A model generated the notes under the pieces. That model worked only from the letters and a program-made list of their open reading frames with translations, was not told where the DNA came from and did not search any database. Below are positions 48,870 to 60,959 of a stretch of 60,959 nt of DNA, in pieces. Source of the stretch: a virus. Lineage: Duplodnaviria > Caudoviricetes. The stretch lies in the IMG/VR virus record IMGVR_UViG_3300021960_000075, positions 1 to 60,959 of that record; one strand, written 5' to 3'. Positions within the stretch are counted from its first letter, which is position 1, and the number at the start of each line of letters is the position of its first letter. Both the position numbers and the translations under genes were made by a program.

Positions 48870-50127
48870 AAACCGAAAAGAAAAAGAATTAAAGTTCAAG
48901 GATGCTTTAGATTTTCCTGAAGTTGAACAAGCTAAAATAGATGATTTCCCTGTACCCCCTAAAGGTTATGAAGATTATTTTGAGTTTGATGAAAAGAGTG
49001 GAACTGGAACTTTAGCACAAAATAAAAAAGAATCTGAAGGTTCACCAGCAAAAAACTGGGACCAATGGCTTTTAGACAATGGAATTGACCCAAATTATTT
49101 TTGTGTTTTAGATGACACAATGAAATTTAGAACTTGGACAGGTGCCGGTGGAGAAAAGATGGTTCATTGGTCTTGTACTATAGTAAGAAAAAGTAGACAA
49201 CTTTTAGATGAAAAAGGTATTAAAGAATTAGTTGATAGAGCTAAAAAAGCTAAATTCAAAGCACCTAAAGTTTCTAAAGGTGATGCTAGCTTCGTAGTTC
49301 TTTTTTCAGACTGGCAGGTCGGAAAAAATGAAGGAGGCGGAACTAAATCTTTAATCAATAGAATTGAAGTAGGTGTTGCAGAAACAATACAAAGATTCAA
49401 AAATCTTCAAACTATTGGATATAATTTTGATGAAATAATTATAGGATGCCTCGGGGACATCGTCGAAGGGTGTTCAGGCTTTTACGATATGCAAGAATTC
49501 TCAGTCGAGCTCGATGACCGTGCTCAAAAAACTGTCGCTAGAAATCTTATGTTTACAGCTATAGATGCTTTTGCACAATTAGGCGTAAAAGTAACTGTTG
49601 TAAGTGTTCCCGGAAATCACGGAGAGAACAGAAGAGGCGGAAAAGCGTACACAAGCTTTATGGATAATAAAGATTTAGAAGTCGCAGACATATTAGAATT
49701 TTCAATGAAACAAAATCCTGAATCTTATAGTCACGTAAAGTACATACATCCAAAAAATAAAGATGATGCTACTTCTGTTGTTTATAAGTCTCACGGAAAA
49801 ATATTAGGATTTGTTCACGGTCACCAATTTCGTTCCGGGGGCGGTTCTTTTGTTCCAGCTAAAGCACAAGCTTGGCATAAAAATCAAAAGTATGGTGGAT
49901 ATAGTATCGGTTATGCAGATATTTTAAACTTTGGTCACTTCCATCACTTTACTTTTGTAGAAGACCCAATGCAATTAATTGGAGCACCTGCACTTGATGG
50001 TGGTTCTAAATGGATAGAACAAACACACGGTAAGCTAACTAGACCGGGTATGTTAAGCTATACAGTTGATAAATACGGTGTTGGTAATATCTTTAAAGCT
50101 CAGAAAAAATCAAAAAAAGAGTTATAG
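48850..50127 (+). CDS. Metallophosphoesterase (calcineurin-like)
   Basis: SDWQ.G, LGD.VEG, PGNHG, HGH, GHFHH. Confidence 0.9.
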   Translation: MSKQQDKNRKEKELKFKDALDFPEVEQAKIDDFPVPPKGYEDYFEFDEKSGTGTLAQNKKESEGSPAKNWDQWLLDNGIDPNYFCVLDDTMKFRTWTGAGGEKMVHWSCTIVRKSRQLLDEKGIKELVDRAKKAKFKAPKVSKGDASFVVLFSDWQVGKNEGGGTKSLINRIEVGVAETIQRFKNLQTIGYNFDEIIIGCLGDIVEGCSGFYDMQEFSVELDDRAQKTVARNLMFTAIDAFAQLGVKVTVVSVPGNHGENRRGGKAYTSFMDNKDLEVADILEFSMKQNPESYSHVKYIHPKNKDDATSVVYKSHGKILGFVHGHQFRSGGGSFVPAKAQAWHKNQKYGGYSIGYADILNFGHFHHFTFVEDPMQLIGAPALDGGSKWIEQTHGKLTRPGMLSYTVDKYGVGNIFKAQKKSKKEL

Positions 50128-50170
50128 AATAAGTACAGTATCTTAAAATATATATAGTAATATATATATT

Positions 50171-50959
50171 ATGGGATATTATTATTTATTAGATAACGAA
50201 AATCCATATGCCAAGATAAGAGAGAATAACAAAAGAGGAAACTACTATCCTTCAAGAAGTAGAGATATACAAGGAATAGTGGTTCATACTGCTGAAGGCG
50301 GTACTGAAGCTGAGCTTATAGCTAAGTATCTATCTACAACTAATAGAACAGCATCTGCTCACTGTGTAATTGATAACAAAAGTATTGTAAATCTACTTCC
50401 TGATGACTTTACAGCTTTTCACGTTAGAGGACACAACAGTAAATCTTTAGGTTTAGAAATAGCTTATTATGCTTCTCAATGGGGTAACAATAAAGAATAC
50501 GAAAATGAAGTAATTGCTATGAGTGCTAAATGGGCTGCAGAAAAAGTAAAAGTATATGACATACCTGTAAGAAGATTAACCATTGATGAATGGTTAAAGG
50601 GTCAGAAAGGATTTATATCACACGCTGAATTAGACCCTACAAGAAGAAGTGACCCCGGAATGAATTTTCCTTGGGAGCAATTTTTTACTTTAATTAAAGG
50701 CAAAGCCTTTAGAAAAGCTAAGCGACAAGCACCAAATTGGAATGGTAGAATATTTGTAGTGAGTGCACCATACGTAAAGGGAGATGACGTAGCTCAGTGG
50801 CAAGATGCTGCTGGTGGATTAACTGCAGATGGAGTTTATGGCAGAAAATCAGAAACAAGGTGTAAAGAAATTCAAAAAATAGCTGGATTAATTCCTGATG
50901 GCATAGTTGGTCCACAGACTTGGTATGCAACATTTGGATTACCAGAGATAGAGGAATAA
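50171..50959 (+). CDS. Endolysin: N-acetylmuramoyl-L-alanine amidase with peptidoglycan-binding domain
   Basis: IVVHTAE, SAH, AFH, SLGLE, SHAE...DPG..FPW; DG.YG and DGIVGPQTW. Confidence 0.92.
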   Translation: MGYYYLLDNENPYAKIRENNKRGNYYPSRSRDIQGIVVHTAEGGTEAELIAKYLSTTNRTASAHCVIDNKSIVNLLPDDFTAFHVRGHNSKSLGLEIAYYASQWGNNKEYENEVIAMSAKWAAEKVKVYDIPVRRLTIDEWLKGQKGFISHAELDPTRRSDPGMNFPWEQFFTLIKGKAFRKAKRQAPNWNGRIFVVSAPYVKGDDVAQWQDAAGGLTADGVYGRKSETRCKEIQKIAGLIPDGIVGPQTWYATFGLPEIEE

Positions 50960-51504
50960 TGCAATTAGAAGTATTAAGAATCAGTTCTCAAGAAGATTCT
51001 ACAAATGGAATTTTATTTGATATAACTGATGGCGTAAGAAAATTCTTATGCTACACAATAGAAGACGAATTTCGTGCTACTAAAGTAATGCACGAAACCC
51101 GAATTCCTGAAGGAACATATAACTTAACTCTAAGGTCAGAAGGTGGTTTCCACTCAAAGTATCTTAGTAAGTATGGTGCTGATTGGCACAAAGGTATGAT
51201 TTGGGTAAAAAATGTTCCGGGATTCGAGTTCATACTTTGGCATACCGGGAACACGGATGAGTCGACCTCGGGGTGTCTCATTTTGGGCTCAAGTCAAAAT
51301 GAAAATATAACTAAAAAAGACGGGTTCGTCGGAGCGTCTGTTGAGGCGTATAAACGAGTTTATCCAATTGTGCGAGATGCAATTTTATTGGATGAAGATG
51401 TCACAGTCACATATGTTGATTATGACTACAGAGAAGGTGGGAGATTTCTGTTACCATTACCTAGAATAGTTAGTGGTGGCGGGTCAGTAAAGAAGATACT
51501 TTAG
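50959..51504 (+). CDS. DUF5675-like protein (His/Cys, L,D-transpeptidase-like motif)
   Basis: T.G.L...CYT.ED, ETRIP.G.Y, ILWH.GN....T.GCL.LG. Confidence 0.8.
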   Translation: MQLEVLRISSQEDSTNGILFDITDGVRKFLCYTIEDEFRATKVMHETRIPEGTYNLTLRSEGGFHSKYLSKYGADWHKGMIWVKNVPGFEFILWHTGNTDESTSGCLILGSSQNENITKKDGFVGASVEAYKRVYPIVRDAILLDEDVTVTYVDYDYREGGRFLLPLPRIVSGGGSVKKIL

Positions 51505-51514
51505 GAGGTATTAA

Positions 51515-51727
51515 ATGCCTGATTATTGGAGAACAGCACTTATTAGAGCAGCTAGAACAGCAGCTCAGACATTTGTAGCTGTACTAATGGCAAATCAAGC
51601 AGGAATGTTTGAAGCTGATGTTGTAATGGCTGCTTCTGTAGCCGGAGCATCTGCTCTAGTTTCTGCTATACAAAATGCGTTGGAAGACGCACCATTTCCA
51701 TTTATGTCTAAAATTCCTAAAGGATAG
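51515..51727 (+). CDS. Holin (r1t-like)
   Basis: W......RA.RT.AQ motif, two hydrophobic segments, lysis cassette. Confidence 0.8.
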   Translation: MPDYWRTALIRAARTAAQTFVAVLMANQAGMFEADVVMAASVAGASALVSAIQNALEDAPFPFMSKIPKG

Positions 51728-51751
51728 TCAAGATATAATCGGTTATAATAG

Positions 51752-51785
51752 ATAGAGATGGTCGGGGAAACCCGACCTTTTCTAT
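51752..51785 (+). terminator. Hairpin/terminator between the two holin-like genes
   Basis: GGTCGGG-GAAA-CCCGACC-TTTT. Confidence 0.65.
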
Positions 51786-51797
51786 TTAGGAGACAAA

Positions 51798-52058
51798 ATG
51801 GTACAGAAAGTAATGAGCGGTGGTCAGCTCTATTTAAATATCATCAAAAGAATTATTGCAGTATTTGTTGCTCAAGCATTGTCAATATTAGGTGCAGGTT
51901 CTTTGGTCGGTATAGATGTCTACCAGTCTGCTTTATTAGCTGGAATTATGGGGGTTGCTCACGTTGTTGAGATGTTAGCAAGAAAATACATAGATGATGG
52001 AAAATTAACGCTTGATGAGGTAAACGAAGTATTTAACGCAGTTCCTACTAGAAAGTAG
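51798..52058 (+). CDS. Holin-like membrane protein
   Basis: Two TM segments, C-terminal DDGKLT..E.N..F; AGGAG RBS. Confidence 0.65.
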   Translation: MVQKVMSGGQLYLNIIKRIIAVFVAQALSILGAGSLVGIDVYQSALLAGIMGVAHVVEMLARKYIDDGKLTLDEVNEVFNAVPTRK

Positions 52059-52061
52059 GAT

Positions 52062-54239
52062 ATGTTTAAAAAAATAAACACGGCTTTACGCCTATTAATT
52101 GTAGGTTTGCTTATTTATCCTATGCCTCTTGTGGGTGCAACAGAAGTAACTGTTAATGAAGGCTTTGCAGATAGCACTTACGAAGCAGGTTTAACTGTTA
52201 GTGGTGGAACTATTTATTGTGATGAACAAAATCAATATGGAACTACAGGTTGTTCTTTATTGTTAAGTAATGGAACTTATACTTTTACATTTTCTAGTGA
52301 TATTTATGTTTACGAAGTTGGATTTATTGTTGGTGCTGTAAATAATGCTTATTCAGTTAAATATTATTATTCTGATGGAACAGATGAAACTATTAATAAG
52401 TCTGGTCAAGACATTAGTAACTTTTCAACTATGTATGATGATTTTTATAAATCATTTACTGATTACAACAATTCAAATGAAATCAGTTCAGAAATATATA
52501 TAACAAAGTTTGATGTTGTTATATCTGATGCTTCTTTATTTGACACTTTATATTGGCAATATGATGACGCAGACGCTACAGGAAGTTTTGGTACCACTAC
52601 GACTACGACTTCTACAACGACTACGACTACTACAATTCCTAGAACTATAGGAACACCTACAAATGCTTCTGTTAAATTTGACACAGTAAATAATAATGAT
52701 GGTTTTTTAGTTTCTTGGTCAGCACCAACAGATGGTGGCTATAGTCCAGAACGATACGCAATATTTTTTGGCGAAGGGGAATGTTGTCAATGGGGAGTAG
52801 CCACAGGAAATGTAGGAGACGCAAATGCTTTAAATACTTACTACTTCTTTTCAATGAATTACTTAACTGCTATATTTGGTAGTCAATATGGAGATTTTTA
52901 TTGGAAAGTAAGGTCAGACAATGATACAGAAGCATTATATTCTGGTTGGTCTGCAACAGTTCATATGAACTCTACTGCACCTACAACGACTACTACAACG
53001 ACTACTACTACTACTACTACTACTACGACTTTACCTCCTCCAGCACCAGAACCAGAACCAGAGCCAGAAAAGATTGTAGTTATTATGGATGATGGTACTA
53101 AAGCAGAATATACAGAAGCTCAAATAGCTGATGGTACTTCCGATAGAGATAAAGAGCGTAACGCTAACGAAGATAAGTGGGGTTGTTATGTAACTAATGC
53201 TGCTTTAGAGCGTGGCGATTGTGAAGCATATAACAAAGCTCTATATGAATCTACCACGACTACCACTATTCCTGATAAAATAGAAGAAGAGATTAAAGAT
53301 GAAGAAATTATTGATACTAAGCCTGATATTGTTGACGAAGAAATTGTCGAAGATGGACTTGAACAGATTGAGACCGACCCACTTCCTAGTGAGGAGGGAG
53401 ATAAAGAGATACAATCAGAGGAACCCGTAGATGAAAAAGATGAAGTTAAGATTACAACTACTACAACAGTTCCTAAAATTACTACTACTACAACCGAACC
53501 GATTAAAGAAGATTTTGTTGATGAAAATATCGTTGAGGAAGAGATTTTGGATATTGAAGTTGTTATTAGCGAAGAACTTACAGAAGAAGAAGTCGAAGTC
53601 TTAGTTAAAGAAACTGAAGCTAAGGTTAAAGAAGTTGTTGTTATTGAAATTGTTGAAGATGAACCTATTGAGGAATTTGAAGCTAAAGTAGAACAAGCTG
53701 TTAAAGAACTTCCTAAAGAAAAGAAAGTCGAAGTTGTTAAAGAGGTAGCTAAAGTATCTGTACAAAATCTAGCTACTGCTGATAATACTACTAAGGCAGT
53801 AGTTAAAGCTGTTGTTAAAGAAGTAACTAAAACAGAAACTGTAGCTCAATTATCTGAAGAAGAAAAGAAAGATGTTGGTAAGGTTTTAGGTTTCCAAGAT
53901 GAAACTGCTGCTGATGATGTTGAGATAATTGCAGTACAAGCCGAAAAAGAACCTGCTATAGCCGAAGCTGTTGCTGAATATGTAGATAGAGCTATAGAAA
54001 ATAAAGATGTAGAAAACTATACCCTTGCTGATGTTGTTACAGAAGTCCAAATAGAAGCGTTTATAGCGGACCCAATAGGTGCTATAATGGATATAGATTT
54101 AGGTAACGTTGACTTTTCGACACTTGGTGATGATATGACATCTGACCAACGTCAAAAAGCAAAAGAAGTTGTAGTCCCTGTGATTATTGCTTCCCAAATA
54201 ATTGCACAAGCAGGTGCATTGATTAGGAGACCATTTTGA
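52062..54239 (+). CDS. Large secreted/surface protein with poly-Thr linkers, FN3-like domain and acidic stalk
   Basis: Signal-peptide-like N-terminus, Thr runs, PEPEP, hydrophobic C-terminus. Confidence 0.8.
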   Translation: MFKKINTALRLLIVGLLIYPMPLVGATEVTVNEGFADSTYEAGLTVSGGTIYCDEQNQYGTTGCSLLLSNGTYTFTFSSDIYVYEVGFIVGAVNNAYSVKYYYSDGTDETINKSGQDISNFSTMYDDFYKSFTDYNNSNEISSEIYITKFDVVISDASLFDTLYWQYDDADATGSFGTTTTTTSTTTTTTTIPRTIGTPTNASVKFDTVNNNDGFLVSWSAPTDGGYSPERYAIFFGEGECCQWGVATGNVGDANALNTYYFFSMNYLTAIFGSQYGDFYWKVRSDNDTEALYSGWSATVHMNSTAPTTTTTTTTTTTTTTTTLPPPAPEPEPEPEKIVVIMDDGTKAEYTEAQIADGTSDRDKERNANEDKWGCYVTNAALERGDCEAYNKALYESTTTTTIPDKIEEEIKDEEIIDTKPDIVDEEIVEDGLEQIETDPLPSEEGDKEIQSEEPVDEKDEVKITTTTTVPKITTTTTEPIKEDFVDENIVEEEILDIEVVISEELTEEEVEVLVKETEAKVKEVVVIEIVEDEPIEEFEAKVEQAVKELPKEKKVEVVKEVAKVSVQNLATADNTTKAVVKAVVKEVTKTETVAQLSEEEKKDVGKVLGFQDETAADDVEIIAVQAEKEPAIAEAVAEYVDRAIENKDVENYTLADVVTEVQIEAFIADPIGAIMDIDLGNVDFSTLGDDMTSDQRQKAKEVVVPVIIASQIIAQAGALIRRPF
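52983..53030 (+). repeat. ACN trinucleotide tract (poly-Thr)
   Basis: acaacgactactacaacgactactactact...; a second tract near 52594-52635. Confidence 0.85.
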
Positions 54240-54439
54240 AAAAGTTAAGCAAAATGGTGGGGGGAGACATATTTATATGGCTATGGGATGTTATTAAAGA
54301 ATCCATAGCTCAAATATTTACTCTATTAGGATTTTTTATTGCTTGGTTTACATTAACCGGCACAGCACAAGATATAGTAGGCATTGCAATAGTTATATCA
54401 ACTATTGTTTGGCTAGTAACAATTAGATTGAGAGATTAA
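54236..54439 (+). CDS. Small two-TM membrane protein
   Basis: QIFTLLGFFIAW.TLTG.A..IVG. Confidence 0.7.
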   Translation: MKKLSKMVGGDIFIWLWDVIKESIAQIFTLLGFFIAWFTLTGTAQDIVGIAIVISTIVWLVTIRLRD

Positions 54440-54673
54440 ATGAAAAGTTTATTAAAAGATAGAACTGTAATGGTTATGACAAGTGGATTATTGTTTCTAC
54501 TTGCTGTAATTGTAGTTGGAGATTTTTATATATCACTAAGAGAAGGTAAGGGACCTGATGATAGTGTTATAGAACTACTACAAATGTCTATAACAGGTAT
54601 GGTGGGCATTATCGCAGGTTATATTTCTGGAGAAAAGAAAAAAGACTGCGACAAGGATTGCTGTAAGGTATAA
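54440..54673 (+). CDS. Small two-TM membrane protein
   Basis: Two hydrophobic segments, G.VG..AGY. Confidence 0.7.
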   Translation: MKSLLKDRTVMVMTSGLLFLLAVIVVGDFYISLREGKGPDDSVIELLQMSITGMVGIIAGYISGEKKKDCDKDCCKV

Positions 54674-54680
54674 TAATATT

Positions 54681-54776
54681 ATGTGTAGTAAATATATAAA
54701 TGATAAAGGTACAATGGTTCAAATATGTAATCACCCAAATGGTTCAGAATTTTGTGATGAGTGGAAAGAAATCTAA
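54681..54776 (+). CDS. 31-aa Cys-containing peptide (not in track)
   Basis: TATAAT-6 nt-ATG; TAATG coupling to next gene. Confidence 0.5.
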   Translation: MCSKYINDKGTMVQICNHPNGSEFCDEWKEI

Positions 54777-54970
54777 TGTCTAATTCAGATTATAGTAACG
54801 GTTTATCACAGAAAGAATTAATAATAATGGTTTTAGAGGGACAGGATAAAATTAACGAGCGTATCGACCAGCTCCACGAAAAGGTCAACACAAAAATGTC
54901 TAGACAGGAGTTTAGCGGCTACTTTGTGGCAATCTCAGCCTTAGTAGTCCTTGTCAATCAATTAATGTAG
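54776..54970 (+). CDS. Small coiled-coil protein with C-terminal TM
   Basis: INERIDQLHEKVN followed by hydrophobic tail. Confidence 0.65.
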   Translation: MSNSDYSNGLSQKELIIMVLEGQDKINERIDQLHEKVNTKMSRQEFSGYFVAISALVVLVNQLM

Positions 54971-54993
54971 TCAATTACCCAAGGGGGTGTTCA

Positions 54994-55134
54994 ATGACGG
55001 AAATTATATTAGCCTTAGCAGTATCAATCATATCTATGGGTATGTTTGTATTTATAGGTTTTCAAATAAATAAGTTTTTAAAGTTTTTTATACCAATAAT
55101 GAAGGAGATTTTAGATGAGCGAAAACAAAACTAA
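54994..55134 (+). CDS. 46-aa membrane peptide (not in track)
   Basis: AGGGGG RBS; MTEIILALAVSIISMGMFVFIG. Confidence 0.55.
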   Translation: MTEIILALAVSIISMGMFVFIGFQINKFLKFFIPIMKEILDERKQN

Positions 55135-55288
55135 GAAACACAGAAGGCGTATTAGTCGTTGTGTTGAGTGTAAAGAGCCACTCAAACATATAGCTAATAA
55201 CCAATGGATGTGCGACCAATCCCCAACTGTGTGCGTAATGTCTACAAAAGTAATATGGTTAAGTAATCCTACTGAAGAAGAGGAATGA
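55115..55288 (+). CDS. 57-aa zinc-ribbon protein (not in track)
   Basis: AGGAG RBS; RCVECKEPL...WMCDQSPTVC. Confidence 0.6.
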   Translation: MSENKTKKHRRRISRCVECKEPLKHIANNQWMCDQSPTVCVMSTKVIWLSNPTEEEE

Positions 55289-55360
55289 TATGGTTTTCAA
55301 TATTGGGATTGCTCTTTTTTTATTATGTTGTTTTTATTATATGGCGAAAGAGTTGAAAAA

Positions 55361-55489
55361 TTGAACCCTGATTGTCCTGTATGTAATTCTTTATTATTAG
55401 AAATAAAAGCAGGACTTTATTGCTATAATGAATCTTGTCCGCAATATAAGCAAAAAGTAGTTGCTTGTTGCGAGGGAGGATTTTGTTAG
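55361..55489 (+). CDS. 42-aa Cys-rich peptide (not in track)
   Basis: TTG start; DCPVC...YCYNESC...ACCEGGFC. Confidence 0.5.
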   Translation: MNPDCPVCNSLLLEIKAGLYCYNESCPQYKQKVVACCEGGFC

Positions 55490-56346
55490 AATCAATATTT
55501 ATAAAAGTACCATCTTTAGACGACAACGAATTAGTTCCTACACTACTAGACGCAATAGAAAAAGCAAATAACCCATACAGATTACACTTTGGCGTATCAC
55601 TTATGTGGTCAGATGAAAAATATCCTAAAGATTTAATTAAATTTGTTAGAAGCGTTAAGTGGATGACGTCAAATTTTAAGATAGTAACACAAAAATATAA
55701 CAAAAATATGCTTGGTGTTGGTAAACAGCGAAAAATTGTTGGCGATATGTACAATGGAGAAGATTATATACTTCAAATTGACTCTCATACTTGGTTTACT
55801 GAGGACTGGGACACTAAGTTAGTAGATTTACACAAAGAATGTCACTATCCTAATGCAATTTTGACTGCTTATGCTGGTAGATACCAGTATATTGACGGCA
55901 AAAGAACCCCAATTGAAGGTGGTTTGCTTAGGTATCCTTGGATACATAAGGGAGAAAGACAGTATTGTGGCTTTACTGATAACTGGGAAGACCTTCCATA
56001 TGAAGGAGAAGCTAAATATGTGCCTGTAAAGTTCTGTGCAAACTTTGCTTTTGGAGCAAAAGAGTGGGGAATCAAAACAGGTTTAGCTGCAGATTCAGTA
56101 TTTTTTAGCGAAGAACCATTACAAACAGAGTATTTAAAGATTAATGGATTTAATTTAGTCTTTCCTAATATAGATTATCCACTTATATGTCATTTATATC
56201 ACCAACATATGACAGAGCAAAGCGAAAGAAAAGCTTTTACAGATTATTTAACTGATGATGAAGCTGATTATTTAATGAATATTCAAGATAAAGAAGTTTA
56301 CGAAAACCATATGGCTAGGATAGAACACTTTAAACATATCACTTAA
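55483..56346 (+). CDS. GT60-like polypeptide GlcNAc transferase (Skp1 Gnt1 family)
   Basis: IF....S..D.EL.PTL.DA..KA.NP.RL.FGV; R......Y.GEDY.LQIDSH..F..DWD..L; ILTAY; F.EE; HLY. Confidence 0.82.
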   Translation: MLESIFIKVPSLDDNELVPTLLDAIEKANNPYRLHFGVSLMWSDEKYPKDLIKFVRSVKWMTSNFKIVTQKYNKNMLGVGKQRKIVGDMYNGEDYILQIDSHTWFTEDWDTKLVDLHKECHYPNAILTAYAGRYQYIDGKRTPIEGGLLRYPWIHKGERQYCGFTDNWEDLPYEGEAKYVPVKFCANFAFGAKEWGIKTGLAADSVFFSEEPLQTEYLKINGFNLVFPNIDYPLICHLYHQHMTEQSERKAFTDYLTDDEADYLMNIQDKEVYENHMARIEHFKHIT

Positions 56347-56348
56347 AA

Positions 56349-56379
56349 TACAGAGCCACCCATTTAGGTGGCTCCTGTA
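56349..56379. terminator. GC-rich hairpin, U tract on the minus strand
   Basis: GAGCCACC-CATTTA-GGTGGCTC with TACAG/CTGTA extension. Confidence 0.6.
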
Positions 56380-56450
56380 AGGAGTATTCGTTACTATGAC
56401 TACTCCGTAGTGATTACAATACCAATATATCACAATGCTAGAATTATTAT

Positions 56451-56795
56451 ATGTTTTACTACAAAATAGAGTTATTAAAGATAGTAGATGGGGATACAAT
56501 AGATGTTAGAATTGATTTGGGTTTTAATGTGTGGCATAAATGTCGTGTTCGACTTATGGGCATTAACGCTCCTGAATCTAGAACCTCAGATAAGTCAGAG
56601 AAAGTCAAAGGGTTGGCTGCGAAAGCTTGGCTAACTAATGTATTGGAATCTTTTCAAGATGATATAGAAATGCAATCACACGGTGAAGGTAAATACGGTA
56701 GAGTTCTTGGAACTTTGTTTATCAACGGTATGAATGTAAATGAGCTAATGGTCAAAGAGGGACACGCTGTTTATTACGATGGCGGTAAGCGTTAA
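56451..56795 (+). CDS. Thermonuclease (SNase-like) family protein
   Basis: IVDGDTID..IDLGF, RL.GINAPE, GKYGR.LG, VN.LMV.EG.A..YDG. Confidence 0.9.
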   Translation: MFYYKIELLKIVDGDTIDVRIDLGFNVWHKCRVRLMGINAPESRTSDKSEKVKGLAAKAWLTNVLESFQDDIEMQSHGEGKYGRVLGTLFINGMNVNELMVKEGHAVYYDGGKR

Positions 56796-56800
56796 AAATC

Positions 56801-57056
56801 GGGGTGGCGTACTAGTTTAAGGTATTGCCTCAGCATTTCTGCACTCTAGCTTTGTCGGCTAGAAGGCTCATTTTCCTTGCCCACTATGTCCGTCTATGAC
56901 GGGGAACTTATCTGATGTGATGATAATAATAAGCAACACACCCCCTTGCAGTTACTAAGCAAATAAATATCACTAAGTAACCACTTGTAGTTTCTCTCTA
57001 CCCAGTATAGCTACCGAGGAAAATGTTATACCCCACGAAAGGAGGCACACCACCCC
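56801..57056 (-). ncRNA. 256-nt multibranched structured RNA, unrecognised family
   Basis: 10-bp terminal stem, nested long-range stems, GAAA-capped hairpin, possible pseudoknot; G-U pairs favour the minus strand. Confidence 0.7.
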
Positions 57057-57061
57057 AAATA

Positions 57062-57457
57062 TTAAAATAAGTCGTCTTCTCTTTCTGCAATTAACATTTG
57101 AGCCATAGTTATTCTTCTACTACCTAGTTTAGCAATTTCTTTAATCATTTCAATAAAAACATTAAGTTGACCAGTTCTAAACTTATAAATAGGATGTTTT
57201 GTTTTTCCAATATCTATACCGCTTTCAAATTTTTTGCAGTACATTTCTATTTCTTTAGCTCTTGCATAGTAAGCAACAGATAATTCATATAAAGAAAAAA
57301 CACCATTTTTTACTGGTTGTTCTTTTCTACCAAACAATGTATCCATATAGTCTTCTAGTTCTACTTCAAACCTTCTAACCATTTCCATAGAATTGCCGTG
57401 ATGTTCAATTCCATCAAAGGCAACTTCTAGTAGCTTGTGATTTTCTCTAGCTAACAT
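57062..57457 (-). CDS. Hypothetical helical phage protein
   Basis: AGGAG RBS; AYYARA.EI...YKFRTG.L..FIE.......LGSRR.T. Confidence 0.75.
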   Translation of the reverse strand: MLARENHKLLEVAFDGIEHHGNSMEMVRRFEVELEDYMDTLFGRKEQPVKNGVFSLYELSVAYYARAKEIEMYCKKFESGIDIGKTKHPIYKFRTGQLNVFIEMIKEIAKLGSRRITMAQMLIAEREDDLF

Positions 57458-57458
57458 T

Positions 57459-57605
57459 TTATTTCTCCTTTTCTACGTCGATAATGTATGAGTATAGCAA
57501 ATTGATATATTGATTTCTTTTTTCTACAGGAATCCAAGAATTAATAATCACTGCTACAAACATTAATAATTTATTAATTTTTCTATGTGCCGCTTCTTCA
57601 GGCAT
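57459..57605 (-). CDS. 48-aa hypothetical protein (not in track)
   Basis: GGAG RBS; fills the gap between neighbours; MPEEAAHRKINKLL. Confidence 0.55.
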   Translation of the reverse strand: MPEEAAHRKINKLLMFVAVIINSWIPVEKRNQYINLLYSYIIDVEKEK

Positions 57606-57834
57606 TGTCTCTCCAGTCTTTATATAATCTGTCTAACTTTTCTATTGCTCTTTTGTTAAACTTTATATTATAGTCAATCATACTGAGAGTATTTTGCCAC
57701 ACTATAGCTAAAGCATCGTTCTTTGGCATACCAGCTAAAAGTATTTCTCTTTTAAATACATTAGCTTCTTCAATAGCTGATTTATATTCCTCTATTGCAT
57801 CCAGCACTTCAAATATGTTATTGTATTCATCCAT
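57598..57834 (-). CDS. Hypothetical protein
   Basis: 78-aa helical ORF in the minus-strand block. Confidence 0.65.
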   Translation of the reverse strand: MDEYNNIFEVLDAIEEYKSAIEEANVFKREILLAGMPKNDALAIVWQNTLSMIDYNIKFNKRAIEKLDRLYKDWRDNA

Positions 57835-58038
57835 AATAAAAATTGTAGAGAGTGTTCAACGAAAGGTAAGAACTAGACATAATTAGAAAATATGACAGTC
57901 TAAAAAAACCCTGTTGCAGATTCTCTCTGCACTCTATTCTCTCTACAGTATCTATCTTACCACAAACGTTAAATGATGGAAGTAACAGTATGCATACAGT
58001 AAGCGTCAACAGGGGTTGTAATATCTAGTACTACATAC

Positions 58039-59577
58039 TCACTTCTGCACACTGTTAGCCTCCAATTCATAATCTTTAATAACTAGTCCATTTTCTAATT
58101 TACCAATTGTTACTGGTTTTCTATAAACAGACTTAACATACTTACCGAAAAGCAAACCTTTACCATTAATACCATAATGAGCAAAGTGTCCTCTTCTAGT
58201 ATGTTGTGCTAGCTCTCTAGGATTAAGCTTACGCTCGGTTCCATCAGCTTCTACTACATATAAAGATGGTTTAACTTTTAAAGTCTTAATAGTTACAGTA
58301 GGACCATCATCATTAGTGTTCTGACCCATTGCTGAACGCTTAATTCTTTTACGCTCGTGTCGGTCTATTGGTGTATCTTCTTTAACAAAGACATCTCCAT
58401 TATCTCCATTTAGCCATTGAGTAACTCTAAATAACCCACCTATAACTGCGTGAGTAATAATAGAAGTACTTAAGTATAAATGAACAGCTTCAGCTTCTGC
58501 ATTATTCTTAGTACGTTTCCATTCTTCTATATACTCGTAACCTTTAACTGTATCTTCTATGCCTTCAAAACAAGCTTCAGAAGTGCTAAACATTTTATGG
58601 GAACCAACGCTCATACTTGTTTGATTTGAAACATATTGATTATCATAAATATTTATTTCATCATCAGCTTGTCTAACATCGTGATAACTAACCATTGAGT
58701 ATGGTCTTCCATAATTGTCTAAACAAATTTGCACATTGTTAATCCAAGTAATTGCTCCATTAGCATTGCATCTAGAGTCATCACAACAAAATCTTCTACC
58801 AAATATATCTACAAATTGTACATACTTAGGTTTAACATCATCTGCTATATAGGGCATAGAAGGCATATCTAATACGAAACCTTTATAATCAATTTCATTA
58901 TTATCATAATTAGGATGATTTAATAATTCTCTAGGCGGTACATTTTTAAATGCAGGGTCATTTGCTAAATTATCTTTAACAACCCACCATCTATGTTGGT
59001 CATTTTCAATAGGTTCATCTAAATCAAATTGACGAACAATAACTGATATATCTTTAAATTTAGGTACACCACTATCTTCTCTAGTTTCATCATTGATTAA
59101 TAGTTTGATTACCTCATCTAACTTTTCATCAGCATCTAGCATATAAAAGTTATCAGCGTATGGTTGTGTTAAGAAAATGTTATTTTCATTGTATAGCTCT
59201 GAACATAGTTCAAGTAATTCATATACAGTATTTTCACCAGCACCTTGTGCGATAACCCTTTCTTTAAGATTTTCCATTTCCATTTCAAATACTTCTGTAG
59301 CATTGAACATATAAGGAACTTTCCCAAGCTTAAGATTTTGAGCAATTTGTGAATCAGTGTACTTAATACTCTCTTCTACATTTCTAAGCATATTTTCTGT
59401 ACTATCAACCCAAGCCTCAAGTGTGGTGTTGTTCTTTTTAAGATGTTCTTTAAATTCAGGTTTATCTTTTAAAGTATCAATATATGCAAAAAGCATACTG
59501 TGTGCTTTAGGAAACCAAAAGTTTCCATATGTAGTAACGGCTATTTTTCTACTTAATAGCTCTGATAGGTTTAACAT
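58039..59577 (-). CDS. Hypothetical protein with C-terminal HxRRGH motif
   Basis: 512 aa; QHTRRGHF...P..IG; AAGGA RBS and upstream TTGACT-17-TATAAT promoter. Confidence 0.8.
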   Translation of the reverse strand: MLNLSELLSRKIAVTTYGNFWFPKAHSMLFAYIDTLKDKPEFKEHLKKNNTTLEAWVDSTENMLRNVEESIKYTDSQIAQNLKLGKVPYMFNATEVFEMEMENLKERVIAQGAGENTVYELLELCSELYNENNIFLTQPYADNFYMLDADEKLDEVIKLLINDETREDSGVPKFKDISVIVRQFDLDEPIENDQHRWWVVKDNLANDPAFKNVPPRELLNHPNYDNNEIDYKGFVLDMPSMPYIADDVKPKYVQFVDIFGRRFCCDDSRCNANGAITWINNVQICLDNYGRPYSMVSYHDVRQADDEINIYDNQYVSNQTSMSVGSHKMFSTSEACFEGIEDTVKGYEYIEEWKRTKNNAEAEAVHLYLSTSIITHAVIGGLFRVTQWLNGDNGDVFVKEDTPIDRHERKRIKRSAMGQNTNDDGPTVTIKTLKVKPSLYVVEADGTERKLNPRELAQHTRRGHFAHYGINGKGLLFGKYVKSVYRKPVTIGKLENGLVIKDYELEANSVQK

Positions 59578-59637
59578 AGCTTTATCCTTTTTTCGTGTAA
59601 TTTAATTATACTATAGTTTGCTGAAAAAGTCAAGAAC

Positions 59638-60036
59638 CTAAAAAGGTGCTTGACTTTCATTTTCATCAGCTACTTCTTTTCTAGTCTTTTTAACAACTTT
59701 GAAATCGCCGTTGCTAAAGTCAAAGACAGTAGAGCCTACTTCATCTCCACCTTCATTGTATAACTTAAAAAGTAGTGAGTTAATGGTATACATCAATTCT
59801 CCTACTTCTTCTAGCCAGTCGTGATACATTTCATTTTGCATTTCAGCATTATGAGAATAGCGGCTATAGTTACCAGTCTCATTTTCTTTACGCATAATAA
59901 GTGTATTTTCACTTTGCCAGTGCTTGATGAGTGCTTCATAATCTTGTAAGTCTCTATACATAGAATGTAAGTTATCTTTACTTAGACTAGATTTATCTAA
60001 TAAGTCCGATGGACTATTGTATTTCAATATGCTCAT
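59638..60036 (-). CDS. Hypothetical protein
   Basis: AGGAG RBS; upstream TTGCTT...TG-A-TACAAT promoter. Confidence 0.7.
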   Translation of the reverse strand: MSILKYNSPSDLLDKSSLSKDNLHSMYRDLQDYEALIKHWQSENTLIMRKENETGNYSRYSHNAEMQNEMYHDWLEEVGELMYTINSLLFKLYNEGGDEVGSTVFDFSNGDFKVVKKTRKEVADENESQAPF

Positions 60037-60093
60037 TGATTCTCCTAATTTATCGAATATTTTATTGTATCATATAACCTTTAAAAAAGCAAA

Positions 60094-60959
60094 TCAGTAT
60101 ATAGTATTTCTTGGTGGTCTAATAATTTCGCTTGGTGCATATTCTTTTCTCCTAAGAACTTCAAAATTATTTATACTATCTTTAGCCCATACTCTTAAGT
60201 AATTAGATATTGGAATATCTACAGCTGCTTTTTTAGCTATGGTCTGCATAATATCAAAAGACATCTTGCTTAAGTCTTGAATGCTCCTATGCCTATGCAC
60301 TCTAGTTCCCATATTGACTTGAGCAAACTTCCTATGTCCAAAAGTTTCTTTATTGTGTATATCAATTAAGTGTGATACTTCTACGCTATAGCCTGTCGGG
60401 TATTCAATAGCTTCTAGAACTTCTCTTCTTGCGGCATATTCGCCTGCAAGTGGCTGATAGAATTCTTGTAGCTTAGGAAAGAACATTGCAAGCATAGGTC
60501 TAGCTACAAGCTCTGTAACTCTTCCCATATCTCCTCTATCGTAGAATGCTTTAACATACTGAACTTCATCATTGATTATTAGTGGACCAACTAGCCCACG
60601 AATAAATCTATCATCAAAATTTTCAATATCTGCATCAATATAAACTACAAGATTAGATTTAGTTACAAATAATCCTTTCCAAAGGTTTTCGCCTTTCCCA
60701 GAAGCTTTAGGTAAATCTGGTTCTATATCTTTTGCATAGAAAAATGGAACGCCGCAACTTTCTACTTCTTGTTTAGTGTTATCAGTTGAACCGCTATCAA
60801 TAACTACTGCTTCATCTATCCAACTAGGAAGACTTTGTAAAATTTTGGCTATAGTTTTATCCTCGTTTAAAGTTGGTATAATTACTGAGACTGTGTTTGT
60901 AGATTTATGGCTCAGAATATAATCAGTTGGAAAATCTTCTTCAGCGTAAGTGAAGGGTT
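60094..60959 (-). CDS. gpgS: Glucosyl-3-phosphoglycerate synthase-like glycosyltransferase, 5' end outside window
   Basis: Frame is open to the window edge: VSVIIPTLNE, IDSGSTD, GKGENLW, IDAD, VKAFYDR, GRVTELVARP, QPLAGEYA.RR, GY.VE. Confidence 0.85.
   Translation of the reverse strand, partial: PFTYAEEDFPTDYILSHKSTNTVSVIIPTLNEDKTIAKILQSLPSWIDEAVVIDSGSTDNTKQEVESCGVPFFYAKDIEPDLPKASGKGENLWKGLFVTKSNLVVYIDADIENFDDRFIRGLVGPLIINDEVQYVKAFYDRGDMGRVTELVARPMLAMFFPKLQEFYQPLAGEYAARREVLEAIEYPTGYSVEVSHLIDIHNKETFGHRKFAQVNMGTRVHRHRSIQDLSKMSFDIMQTIAKKAAVDIPISNYLRVWAKDSINNFEVLRRKEYAPSEIIRPPRNTIY

Follow-up and report, generated by a model that had tools for sequence, protein, structure and literature searches.

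A conserved, elaborately folded RNA at the convergence of two gene blocks in an uncultured tailed phage

A structured RNA between convergent genes

The window analysed in this work is the whole 60,959-bp stretch of the complete IMG/VR virus record IMGVR_UViG_3300021960_000075 (about 34% G+C), which carries the terminase, portal, capsid and tape-measure genes of a tailed phage. Its genes run rightward up to 56795, a leftward block extends from the right end of the record down to 57062, and the entire gap in which these two opposed gene sets converge is occupied by a conserved, elaborately folded RNA encoded on the minus strand at 56801-57056. The 5' end of this RNA (57056) lies 5 nt past the stop codon of a same-strand open reading frame (ORF) of 131 amino acids (aa), while 5 nt separate its 3' end (56801) from the stop codon of a convergent nuclease gene (Table 1). 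A single copy of the RNA is recognised in the window by nhmmer. A preliminary description, made from the letters of the window alone, had placed a large structured non-coding RNA at these coordinates and on this strand, and both are right.

The minus strand folds to -89.5 kcal/mol (z = -4.04), a stability that none of 200 shuffled sequences reached, whereas the plus strand folds less well (z = -2.45; 1 of 200 shuffles). With the flanking proteins as bait, 11 and 78 related viral loci were recovered, and nhmmer located the RNA in all 11 loci with the 131-aa ORF and in three more, which provided 11 further distinct sequences beside that of the window. A three-block pattern taken from the first alignment then retrieved 66 stretches from metagenome contigs, 48 of them true homologues according to nhmmer. 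The exact pattern found five stretches in prokaryote genomes (one per species), none of which was real by nhmmer, and thus no prophage copy at that sensitivity; a looser pattern in viral contigs returned 89 stretches, among which nhmmer recognised only contigs already known. Removal of duplicates left 46 distinct sequences, and one of them (L230), cut by a contig end, was dropped. The resulting alignment of 45 sequences (A2) spans lengths of about 227-269 nt, a lowest pairwise identity of 46% and 14 clusters at 85% identity. It is based on MAFFT, and several of its rows, including that of the window, are one or two columns out of register in P1, P2 and P10, so that the paired percentages given below are lowered rather than raised. 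Two contig names carry the TARA prefix, and the phages are therefore most likely marine.

Comparative analysis strongly supports the fold. Of the 43 pairs suggested by RNAalifold, 32 show compensatory changes, and the set includes two helices that had not been spotted previously; the final model comprises 13 helices and 69 pairs, all nested. In A2, standard pairs fill 88.6% of the cells of this model, against 41.0-44.8% when the 3' partners are slid by one to three columns. Likewise, 55 of the 69 pairs change on both sides (24-31 when slid), with 578 double-changed cells (96-158 when slid), and none of 500 shuffles matched the observed pairing or covariation score. The signal persists when each 85% cluster is represented by one sequence (14 rows; 89.9% paired vs 41-44%, and 50 vs 20-24 covarying pairs), and shared ancestry therefore does not explain the covariation.

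The paired columns hold 367 G-U or U-G combinations against 40 A-C or C-A ones, which identifies the minus strand as the functional one and RNA as the functional molecule, in line with the argument that the preliminary description had drawn from the G-U pairs. In this regard, the idea that the element is not an RNA gene at all, but a DNA-level site such as a packaging site or an origin, or else a small protein-coding gene, is already contradicted and hardly credible. Its position near one end of the record would suit a DNA site, as would its place downstream of a terminase-small-subunit-like gene (so judged by eye) in the deep clades; nevertheless, DNA hairpins cannot account for a strand-specific G-U excess, and the compensatory changes keep pairing, not sequence. 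As for a protein, the homologues share no open reading frame (stop-free runs reach at most 34-68 aa, depending on the sequence) and their hairpins differ in length by numbers that are not multiples of three.

In the architecture that emerges, P1 joins the two ends, P2 stacks inside P1, and P3 encloses a five-helix central domain, while P9-P11 form a three-way junction on the 3' side. The nucleotides that do not vary are concentrated in the junctions (ACUG, AAGU, GCAAGGG, GUG, CUGAG) and in J1/2, the unpaired strand between P1 and P2; the loop of P11 varies among GAAA, GAGA, GUAA, GCAA and GUGA, all of which conform to GNRA. An all-against-all comparison of columns for additional tertiary or pseudoknot pairs gave clade-level noise only. 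An 8-nt loop-loop match between P10 and P8a, picked out by eye, was confined to one clade and was dropped.

Eight of the ten helices of the preliminary description are kept with compensatory changes across the 45 homologues, namely P1, GGGGUAU/AUACCUU, the 9-bp stem, GUAG/CUAC, the long variable hairpin, CUUAU/AUAAG, UCUAGC/GCUAGA and GCA-GAAA-UGC. The remaining two find no support: GCCUC/GAGGC, there named P2, shows no covariation, has two invariant pairs and is broken at one pair in 14 of 45 sequences, and the CCGUC/GACGG hairpin by itself is paired in 45.4% of cells. Jointly they are paired in 66.7% of cells, compared with a shuffled mean of 66.9%. In 45 of 45 sequences, GAGG is partnered by an internal CCU (56864-56867) located right behind the 3' strand of P3. 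As to the supposed hairpin, its CGG pairs with a CUG (57003-57005) after P4, in a helix whose fourth pair occurs as five standard pair types. Since GCCUC/GAGGC falls away, GGGGUAU/AUACCUU is a real but ordinary nested helix (P2 of the present model) rather than the pseudoknot it had been taken for. The U tract noted after P1 is a partial feature of the family: a run of at least four U is present in 28 of 45 members and lacking in 17, and part of it is the nuclease gene's final lysine codon and stop codon, read in reverse complement.

Table 1. Positions of the RNA, its parts and the two adjoining genes in the window (pos., position; both strands of a helix are given 5' strand first)
Feature	Position	Strand	Basis or remark
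Whole structured RNA, 256 nt	56801..57056	-	Fold, homologues, covariation
P1, 5' strand GGGGUGGUGU, pairs with 56801-56810	57047..57056	-	Both partners vary in 7 of 9 pairs
P1, 3' strand ACGCCACCCC, followed by GAUUUUUAA	56801..56810	-	Covariation of P1
J1/2, unpaired GCCUCCUUUCGU	57035..57046	-	UCCUUUC (near-)invariant in the family; resembles the 16S 3' tail
P2, 5' strand GGGGUAU, pairs with AUACCUU at 56819-56825	57028..57034	-	Both partners vary in 7 of 7 pairs; nested
P3, 5' strand CAUUUUCCU, pairs with 56869-56877	57017..57025	-	6 of 6 pairs covary, 93.7% paired; closes the central domain
Central domain	56883..57011	-	P4-P8a; invariant junction nucleotides include ACUG, AAGU and GCAAGGG
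P4	57007-57011 / 56883-56887	-	Covariation model
P5	57003-57005 / 56890-56892	-	First obtained from RNAalifold
P6 hairpin	56998-57001 / 56987-56990	-	Covariation model
P7a and P7, variable hairpin	within 56948-56984	-	Covariation model
P8	56942-56945 / 56902-56905	-	Covariation model
P8a hairpin	56928-56934 / 56906-56912	-	Covariation model
3' three-way junction, P9-P11	56827..56867	-	Covariation model
P9, GCCU / AGGC	56864-56867 / 56827-56830	-	100% paired; 3 of 4 pairs covary
P10 hairpin, 7-nt A-rich loop	56858-56863 / 56845-56850	-	Covariation model
P11 hairpin, GNRA loop	56840-56842 / 56833-56835	-	Covariation model
131-aa ORF, directly upstream of the RNA	57062..57457	-	Context; no functional link implied
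SNase-like endonuclease gene, convergent, abuts the RNA 3' end	56451..56795	+	Pfam PF00565 3e-14; phrog_452 9.1e-39; context

Comparison with known RNA families

A search with the 4227 families of Rfam 15 gave no match at the gathering score in the window or in ten homologous loci (98,445 nt). At E <= 10, the region 56500-57400 produced seven matches of the kind of snoRNA-type noise, the best with an E of 2.1, and the models for ROOL, GOLLD, raiA, 6S, tmRNA, pRNA, HEARO and OLE found no match. Together with the strong covariation, these results agree with the preliminary description in its proposal that the minus strand encodes a large and structured, as yet undescribed non-coding RNA of the phage.

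The same description had read an RNase P-like helix order into the molecule. That order rested on the GCCUC/GAGGC helix and on a P4-like pseudoknot, and with neither of them supported the P1-P2-P4 parallel with RNase P is gone. What is left is a general likeness to bacterial RNase P RNA (RF00010/RF00011): a length of a few hundred nucleotides, ends joined by P1, several domains with multi-way junctions and a GNRA-capped hairpin towards the 3' side. In contrast, the present RNA has no P4-type pseudoknot, its long-range helices covary freely, it is encoded by a phage rather than a cell, and tRNA genes are not found nearby. RF00010 detects nothing at E <= 10 in this genome, whereas it matches in 11 of 14 control genomes, and no RNase P model is among the matches at that threshold. 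Moreover, GAAAGUC, the conserved core motif of RNase P RNA, occurs in none of the 45 sequences, in keeping with the absence of the RNase P consensus noted at the outset. The view that the RNA is a highly divergent but true member of the RNase P family is thus largely refuted already, and we consider it extremely unlikely.

A tRNA-like element near 2630, put forward in the preliminary description as a partner of the RNA, did not hold up: ARAGORN calls no tRNA in the window, and 2596-2900 has no BLAST-level counterpart in four of four RNA-bearing viral records, one of them rated 100% complete. For the element itself (2603-2740), Rfam gives only a 17-nt match that resembles the T arm of tmRNA (2716-2732, E = 0.0012).

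A parallel for J1/2 is OLE RNA, a large structured non-coding RNA whose P6 substructure is described as holding a conserved CCUCCU that mimics the 16S rRNA tail and is bound by the ribosomal protein bS21, CCUCCU being the 16S 3' tail as quoted there for H. halodurans (PMC12054373). OLE differs in being about 600 nt long, in belonging to Bacillota and in having its tail copy within a helix (PMC12054373), whereas in the phage RNA the tail copy is unpaired and GAGG belongs to another helix. An OLE-like duplex of Shine-Dalgarno and anti-Shine-Dalgarno strands, with 4 bp of CCUC/GAGG, could form in 31 of the 45 members, but without covariation.

Other phage RNAs offer looser parallels. phi29 pRNA (RF00044) is likewise phage-encoded and structured, with paired 5' and 3' ends and a place near the genome end; nevertheless, its model does not match, no conserved complementary pair of loops for ring formation was found in the present family, and the RNA studied here resides in a tape-measure-bearing tailed phage with terminase genes. 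ROOL and GOLLD RNAs, large ornate RNAs often borne by phages or prophages, are two to three times longer than this RNA. They share with it an association with phages and an elaborate fold conserved by covariation, but are reported to form RNA-only multimers (PMC12286853), and neither sequence nor model links them to the present family. The candidate structured RNAs of the DNAVirus_N set (PMC10690425) come from the same data source, IMG/VR, and also show covariation in phage intergenic regions; they are unnamed elements of 29-151 nt, which may include a fragment of the present RNA. Full-text literature searches, whose scope did not extend to the candidate lists of PMC10690425, found no description of the RNA.

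In addition, the RNA is not placed as a riboswitch would be, in the 5' leader of a gene under its control; in all 41 loci it comes after a stop codon and is opposed by a convergent gene. We regard it as a new RNA family, outside any known kind and with a narrow known range of one group of uncultured phages. We hold with high confidence that this family is real, new and encoded on the minus strand.

Large, complex and conserved RNAs are rare, and most of those known are ribozymes, riboswitches or cores of RNA-protein machines. Here, 13 covarying helices are packed into about 250 nt and none of the 4227 Rfam families is matched, in a molecule small enough for chemical probing and cryo-electron microscopy. 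The phages whose accessory operon includes the RNA are without a cultured relative in the INPHARED collection. No close relative of the record is present among 50,697 phage records, and cultured-phage DNA matches neither the RNA (blastn) nor 50000-60959 (megablast).

Conserved position, expression and possible role

The nuclease gene follows the RNA in convergent orientation in all 41 loci examined, mostly at a distance of 4-17 nt, and in most members the RNA starts 2-8 nt past the stop codon upstream. The 131-aa ORF precedes the RNA in 28 of these loci; of the remaining 13, seven have too little upstream sequence and six (L187, L189, L238, L243, L233, L190) have other content, with a gene whose product resembles the terminase small subunit (by eye, with no family search) and then a conserved non-coding stretch. 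In the deep clades the RNA is preceded by about 580-690 nt with no ORF of at least 60 aa, and not by a gene end. Conversely, 64 nuclease loci have no RNA, and in all 52 of them with at least 450 nt of downstream sequence the next sizeable ORF is oriented like the nuclease gene. Therefore, the RNA goes with the convergent leftward block and not with the nuclease.

Regarding expression, the contigs of a metatranscriptome (X1) cover a small share of the region; six contigs map within 56812-60959, and 53000-56811 has none. The 235-nt one among them spans 56812-57047, that is, almost the full length of the RNA and nothing beyond it, with no substitutions and one missing base. These contigs hint at a transcribed leftward block together with a discrete RNA. 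Three further runs of unknown kind (X2-X4) contain DNA and are uninformative on expression. A scan for the terminator consensus found only a chance hairpin at 57027-57049.

The strand that draws most attention to a possible function is J1/2. UCCUUUC is kept there in all clades and CCUCCUUUC in most, amid sequence that varies, and no covarying partner was found for it. The full nine letters of CCUCCUUUC presumably match the 16S tails of many bacteria. Variants of GAGG (GAGA in five sequences, GAAG in two) are compensated in the internal CCU and not in the 5' CCUCC, which implies that CCUCC is kept for a reason other than pairing with GAGG. In the phage itself, motifs of Shine-Dalgarno type precede 26 of 45 gene starts, as counted with a crude regular expression, and the host probably uses such motifs too.

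On these grounds we tentatively propose that the element is a stable, trans-acting RNA of uncultured, most likely marine, tailed phages that is recognised through J1/2, a reading that, taken as a whole, we regard as possible rather than probable. The RNA would be made as the 3' end of the leftward operon transcript, would end at P1 and the U run, and would persist as a discrete stable molecule; that it acts in trans is a guess held with low confidence. UCCUUUC, extended to CCUCCUUUC in most members and held between P1 and P2, would copy the mRNA-docking tail of 16S rRNA, so that J1/2 might serve as the recognition site for a purine tract of Shine-Dalgarno type or for a protein that normally binds the 16S tail. 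By such means the phage could bend host translation, or decoy a host factor, early in infection. If the one invariant single strand of the molecule does copy the 16S tail, the family would offer, beside the OLE-bS21 result, a testable hypothesis of RNA-based interference with translation initiation. A bolder version, in which a rigid scaffold displaying CCUCCUUUC would capture Shine-Dalgarno leaders or a 30S protein (e.g., bS21) and thereby re-route host translation, or in which the RNA would found a new class of large ribozymes, seems to us unlikely.

Several observations weigh against a trans-acting role through J1/2. Four deep clades keep only UCCUUUC, with AAUCC, UGUCC or UAUCC in place of CCUCC, and the likeness to the 16S tail amounts to a motif of 7-9 nt that may have arisen by chance. 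J1/2 might just as well be engaged in a tertiary contact within the molecule, with other invariant purines (GCAAGGG, GGGAAAG), a contact to which covariation would be blind because the strand is invariant. Thirteen conserved helices are more than a simple seed-pairing RNA would require, and the phage has no bS21 gene. Furthermore, no promoter of its own stands out for the RNA (9 promoter-like sites vs 7.5 expected), and its X1 contig has a depth of 2.6, no higher than that of the operon contigs (2.5-10.3). Neither strand nor ends are visible in the X1 contigs, carry-over of DNA could contribute to them, and their uncovered parts do not amount to silence.

The main rival is a cis-acting 3'-end element that would end and protect the leftward operon transcript and insulate the convergent units, with no function in trans; we judge this account doubtful, though worth serious consideration, and should it be correct the element would be an unusually elaborate one of its type. 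The tight spacing to the stop codons on both sides in most loci, the GC-rich P1 followed in 28 of 45 members by a run of at least four U, the lack of an evident promoter and the absence of the RNA from all 52 nuclease loci with same-strand genes downstream are what such an element would lead one to expect. However, 13 helices whose invariant junctions persist down to 46% identity exceed what a terminator or stabiliser requires; the strands of P1 stand about 240 nt apart, unlike those of an intrinsic terminator hairpin; 17 of 45 members have no U run, which moreover belongs in part to the last codons of the nuclease gene; and in the deep clades the RNA does not follow a gene end. The related idea of a riboswitch-like aptamer, in which P1 and the U run would decide on antisense read-through into the nuclease and the late genes, starts from a large aptamer-like fold closed by P1 directly before the U run, and antisense-controlling riboswitches at operon ends are known. 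Yet P1 has 9-10 bp and is GC-rich, and should therefore form without a ligand, no alternative anti-terminator pairing is conserved, the same 17 members lack the U run and no same-strand gene lies downstream, all of which makes such a switch very unlikely.

A new ribozyme, which would free itself from the operon transcript just past the stop codon or would cut or otherwise act on another RNA in trans, is in our view improbable, although less so than a riboswitch. It would amount to the RNase P-like idea taken broadly; the preliminary description had itself offered either a ribozyme or a mimic that sequesters a protein, both of which are conceivable. The size, the closed multi-junction fold, the GNRA hairpin and the invariant unpaired nucleotides of the junctions resemble those of large ribozymes, some step that makes the 5' end is required if there is no promoter, and the two ends of the X1 contig each fall within about 10 nt of a predicted end of the RNA. 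On the other hand, no ribozyme family of Rfam matches even at E <= 10, no pseudoknot is supported, and of the 20 loci scanned, 19 are free of tRNA genes and one has its tRNA gene 4.4 kb away, so that none lies within 4 kb. This tRNA gene, in L241 (3817-3897), is a tRNA-Arg (CCU) according to ARAGORN and is not reported by Rfam at the gathering score.

Neighbouring genes and further observations

The leftward block encodes a glycosyltransferase, a 512-aa protein and small ORFs of no family. The product of the 131-aa ORF belongs to no Pfam, PHROG or NCBIfam family; its predicted structure is a three-helix bundle (predicted local distance difference test score, pLDDT, 83) with no Foldseek match at E <= 0.001, and the label 'barstar' that one source attaches to a homologue is not borne out by this all-helical fold. 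Homologues with about 40% identity occur as hypothetical proteins of Gordonia and Brevibacterium phages (16 records), and the protein is thus far more widespread than the RNA. The 512-aa protein (58039-59577, minus strand) has no Pfam, PHROG or NCBIfam family and no match to a solved chain. Its nearest ESM-Atlas clusters are labelled AcrVA2-like PF26125 (score 0.96, 28 of 30 hits), a family outside the Pfam set scanned, and we take this as a lead only.

The glycosyltransferase gene, the last of the leftward block (60094-60957, minus strand), scores as glucosyl-3-phosphoglycerate synthase with NCBIfam NF010496 (294.6 bits vs a cut-off of 262). The record stops at its right end before the 5' end of this gene is reached, and it is thus cut within a gene despite its rating as 100% complete. 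In other members of the group, six independent contigs (L102, L143, L144, L180, L194 and L231) end just 72-266 nt upstream of the 5' end of the RNA, which suggests a recurrent assembly break there in some clades, caused by a hypervariable or repeated region or by a physical end.

The second conserved non-coding stretch of the deep clades, between the terminase-small-subunit-like gene and the RNA, measures about 385 nt and is 70% identical between clades. With the RNA on the plus strand, it is found at about 4630-5000 in L238, at about 6350-6715 in L190 and also in L233, while about 160 nt of it are present in L187 (about 1580-1730); it shows no similarity to anything in the window. In the window, a strong terminator-like hairpin on the minus strand (56352-56375; 10 pairs, six of them G-C, followed by GUAUUUUAAG) lies between a glycosyltransferase gene (55465-56346) and the nuclease gene, where it could stop minus-strand read-through past the RNA.

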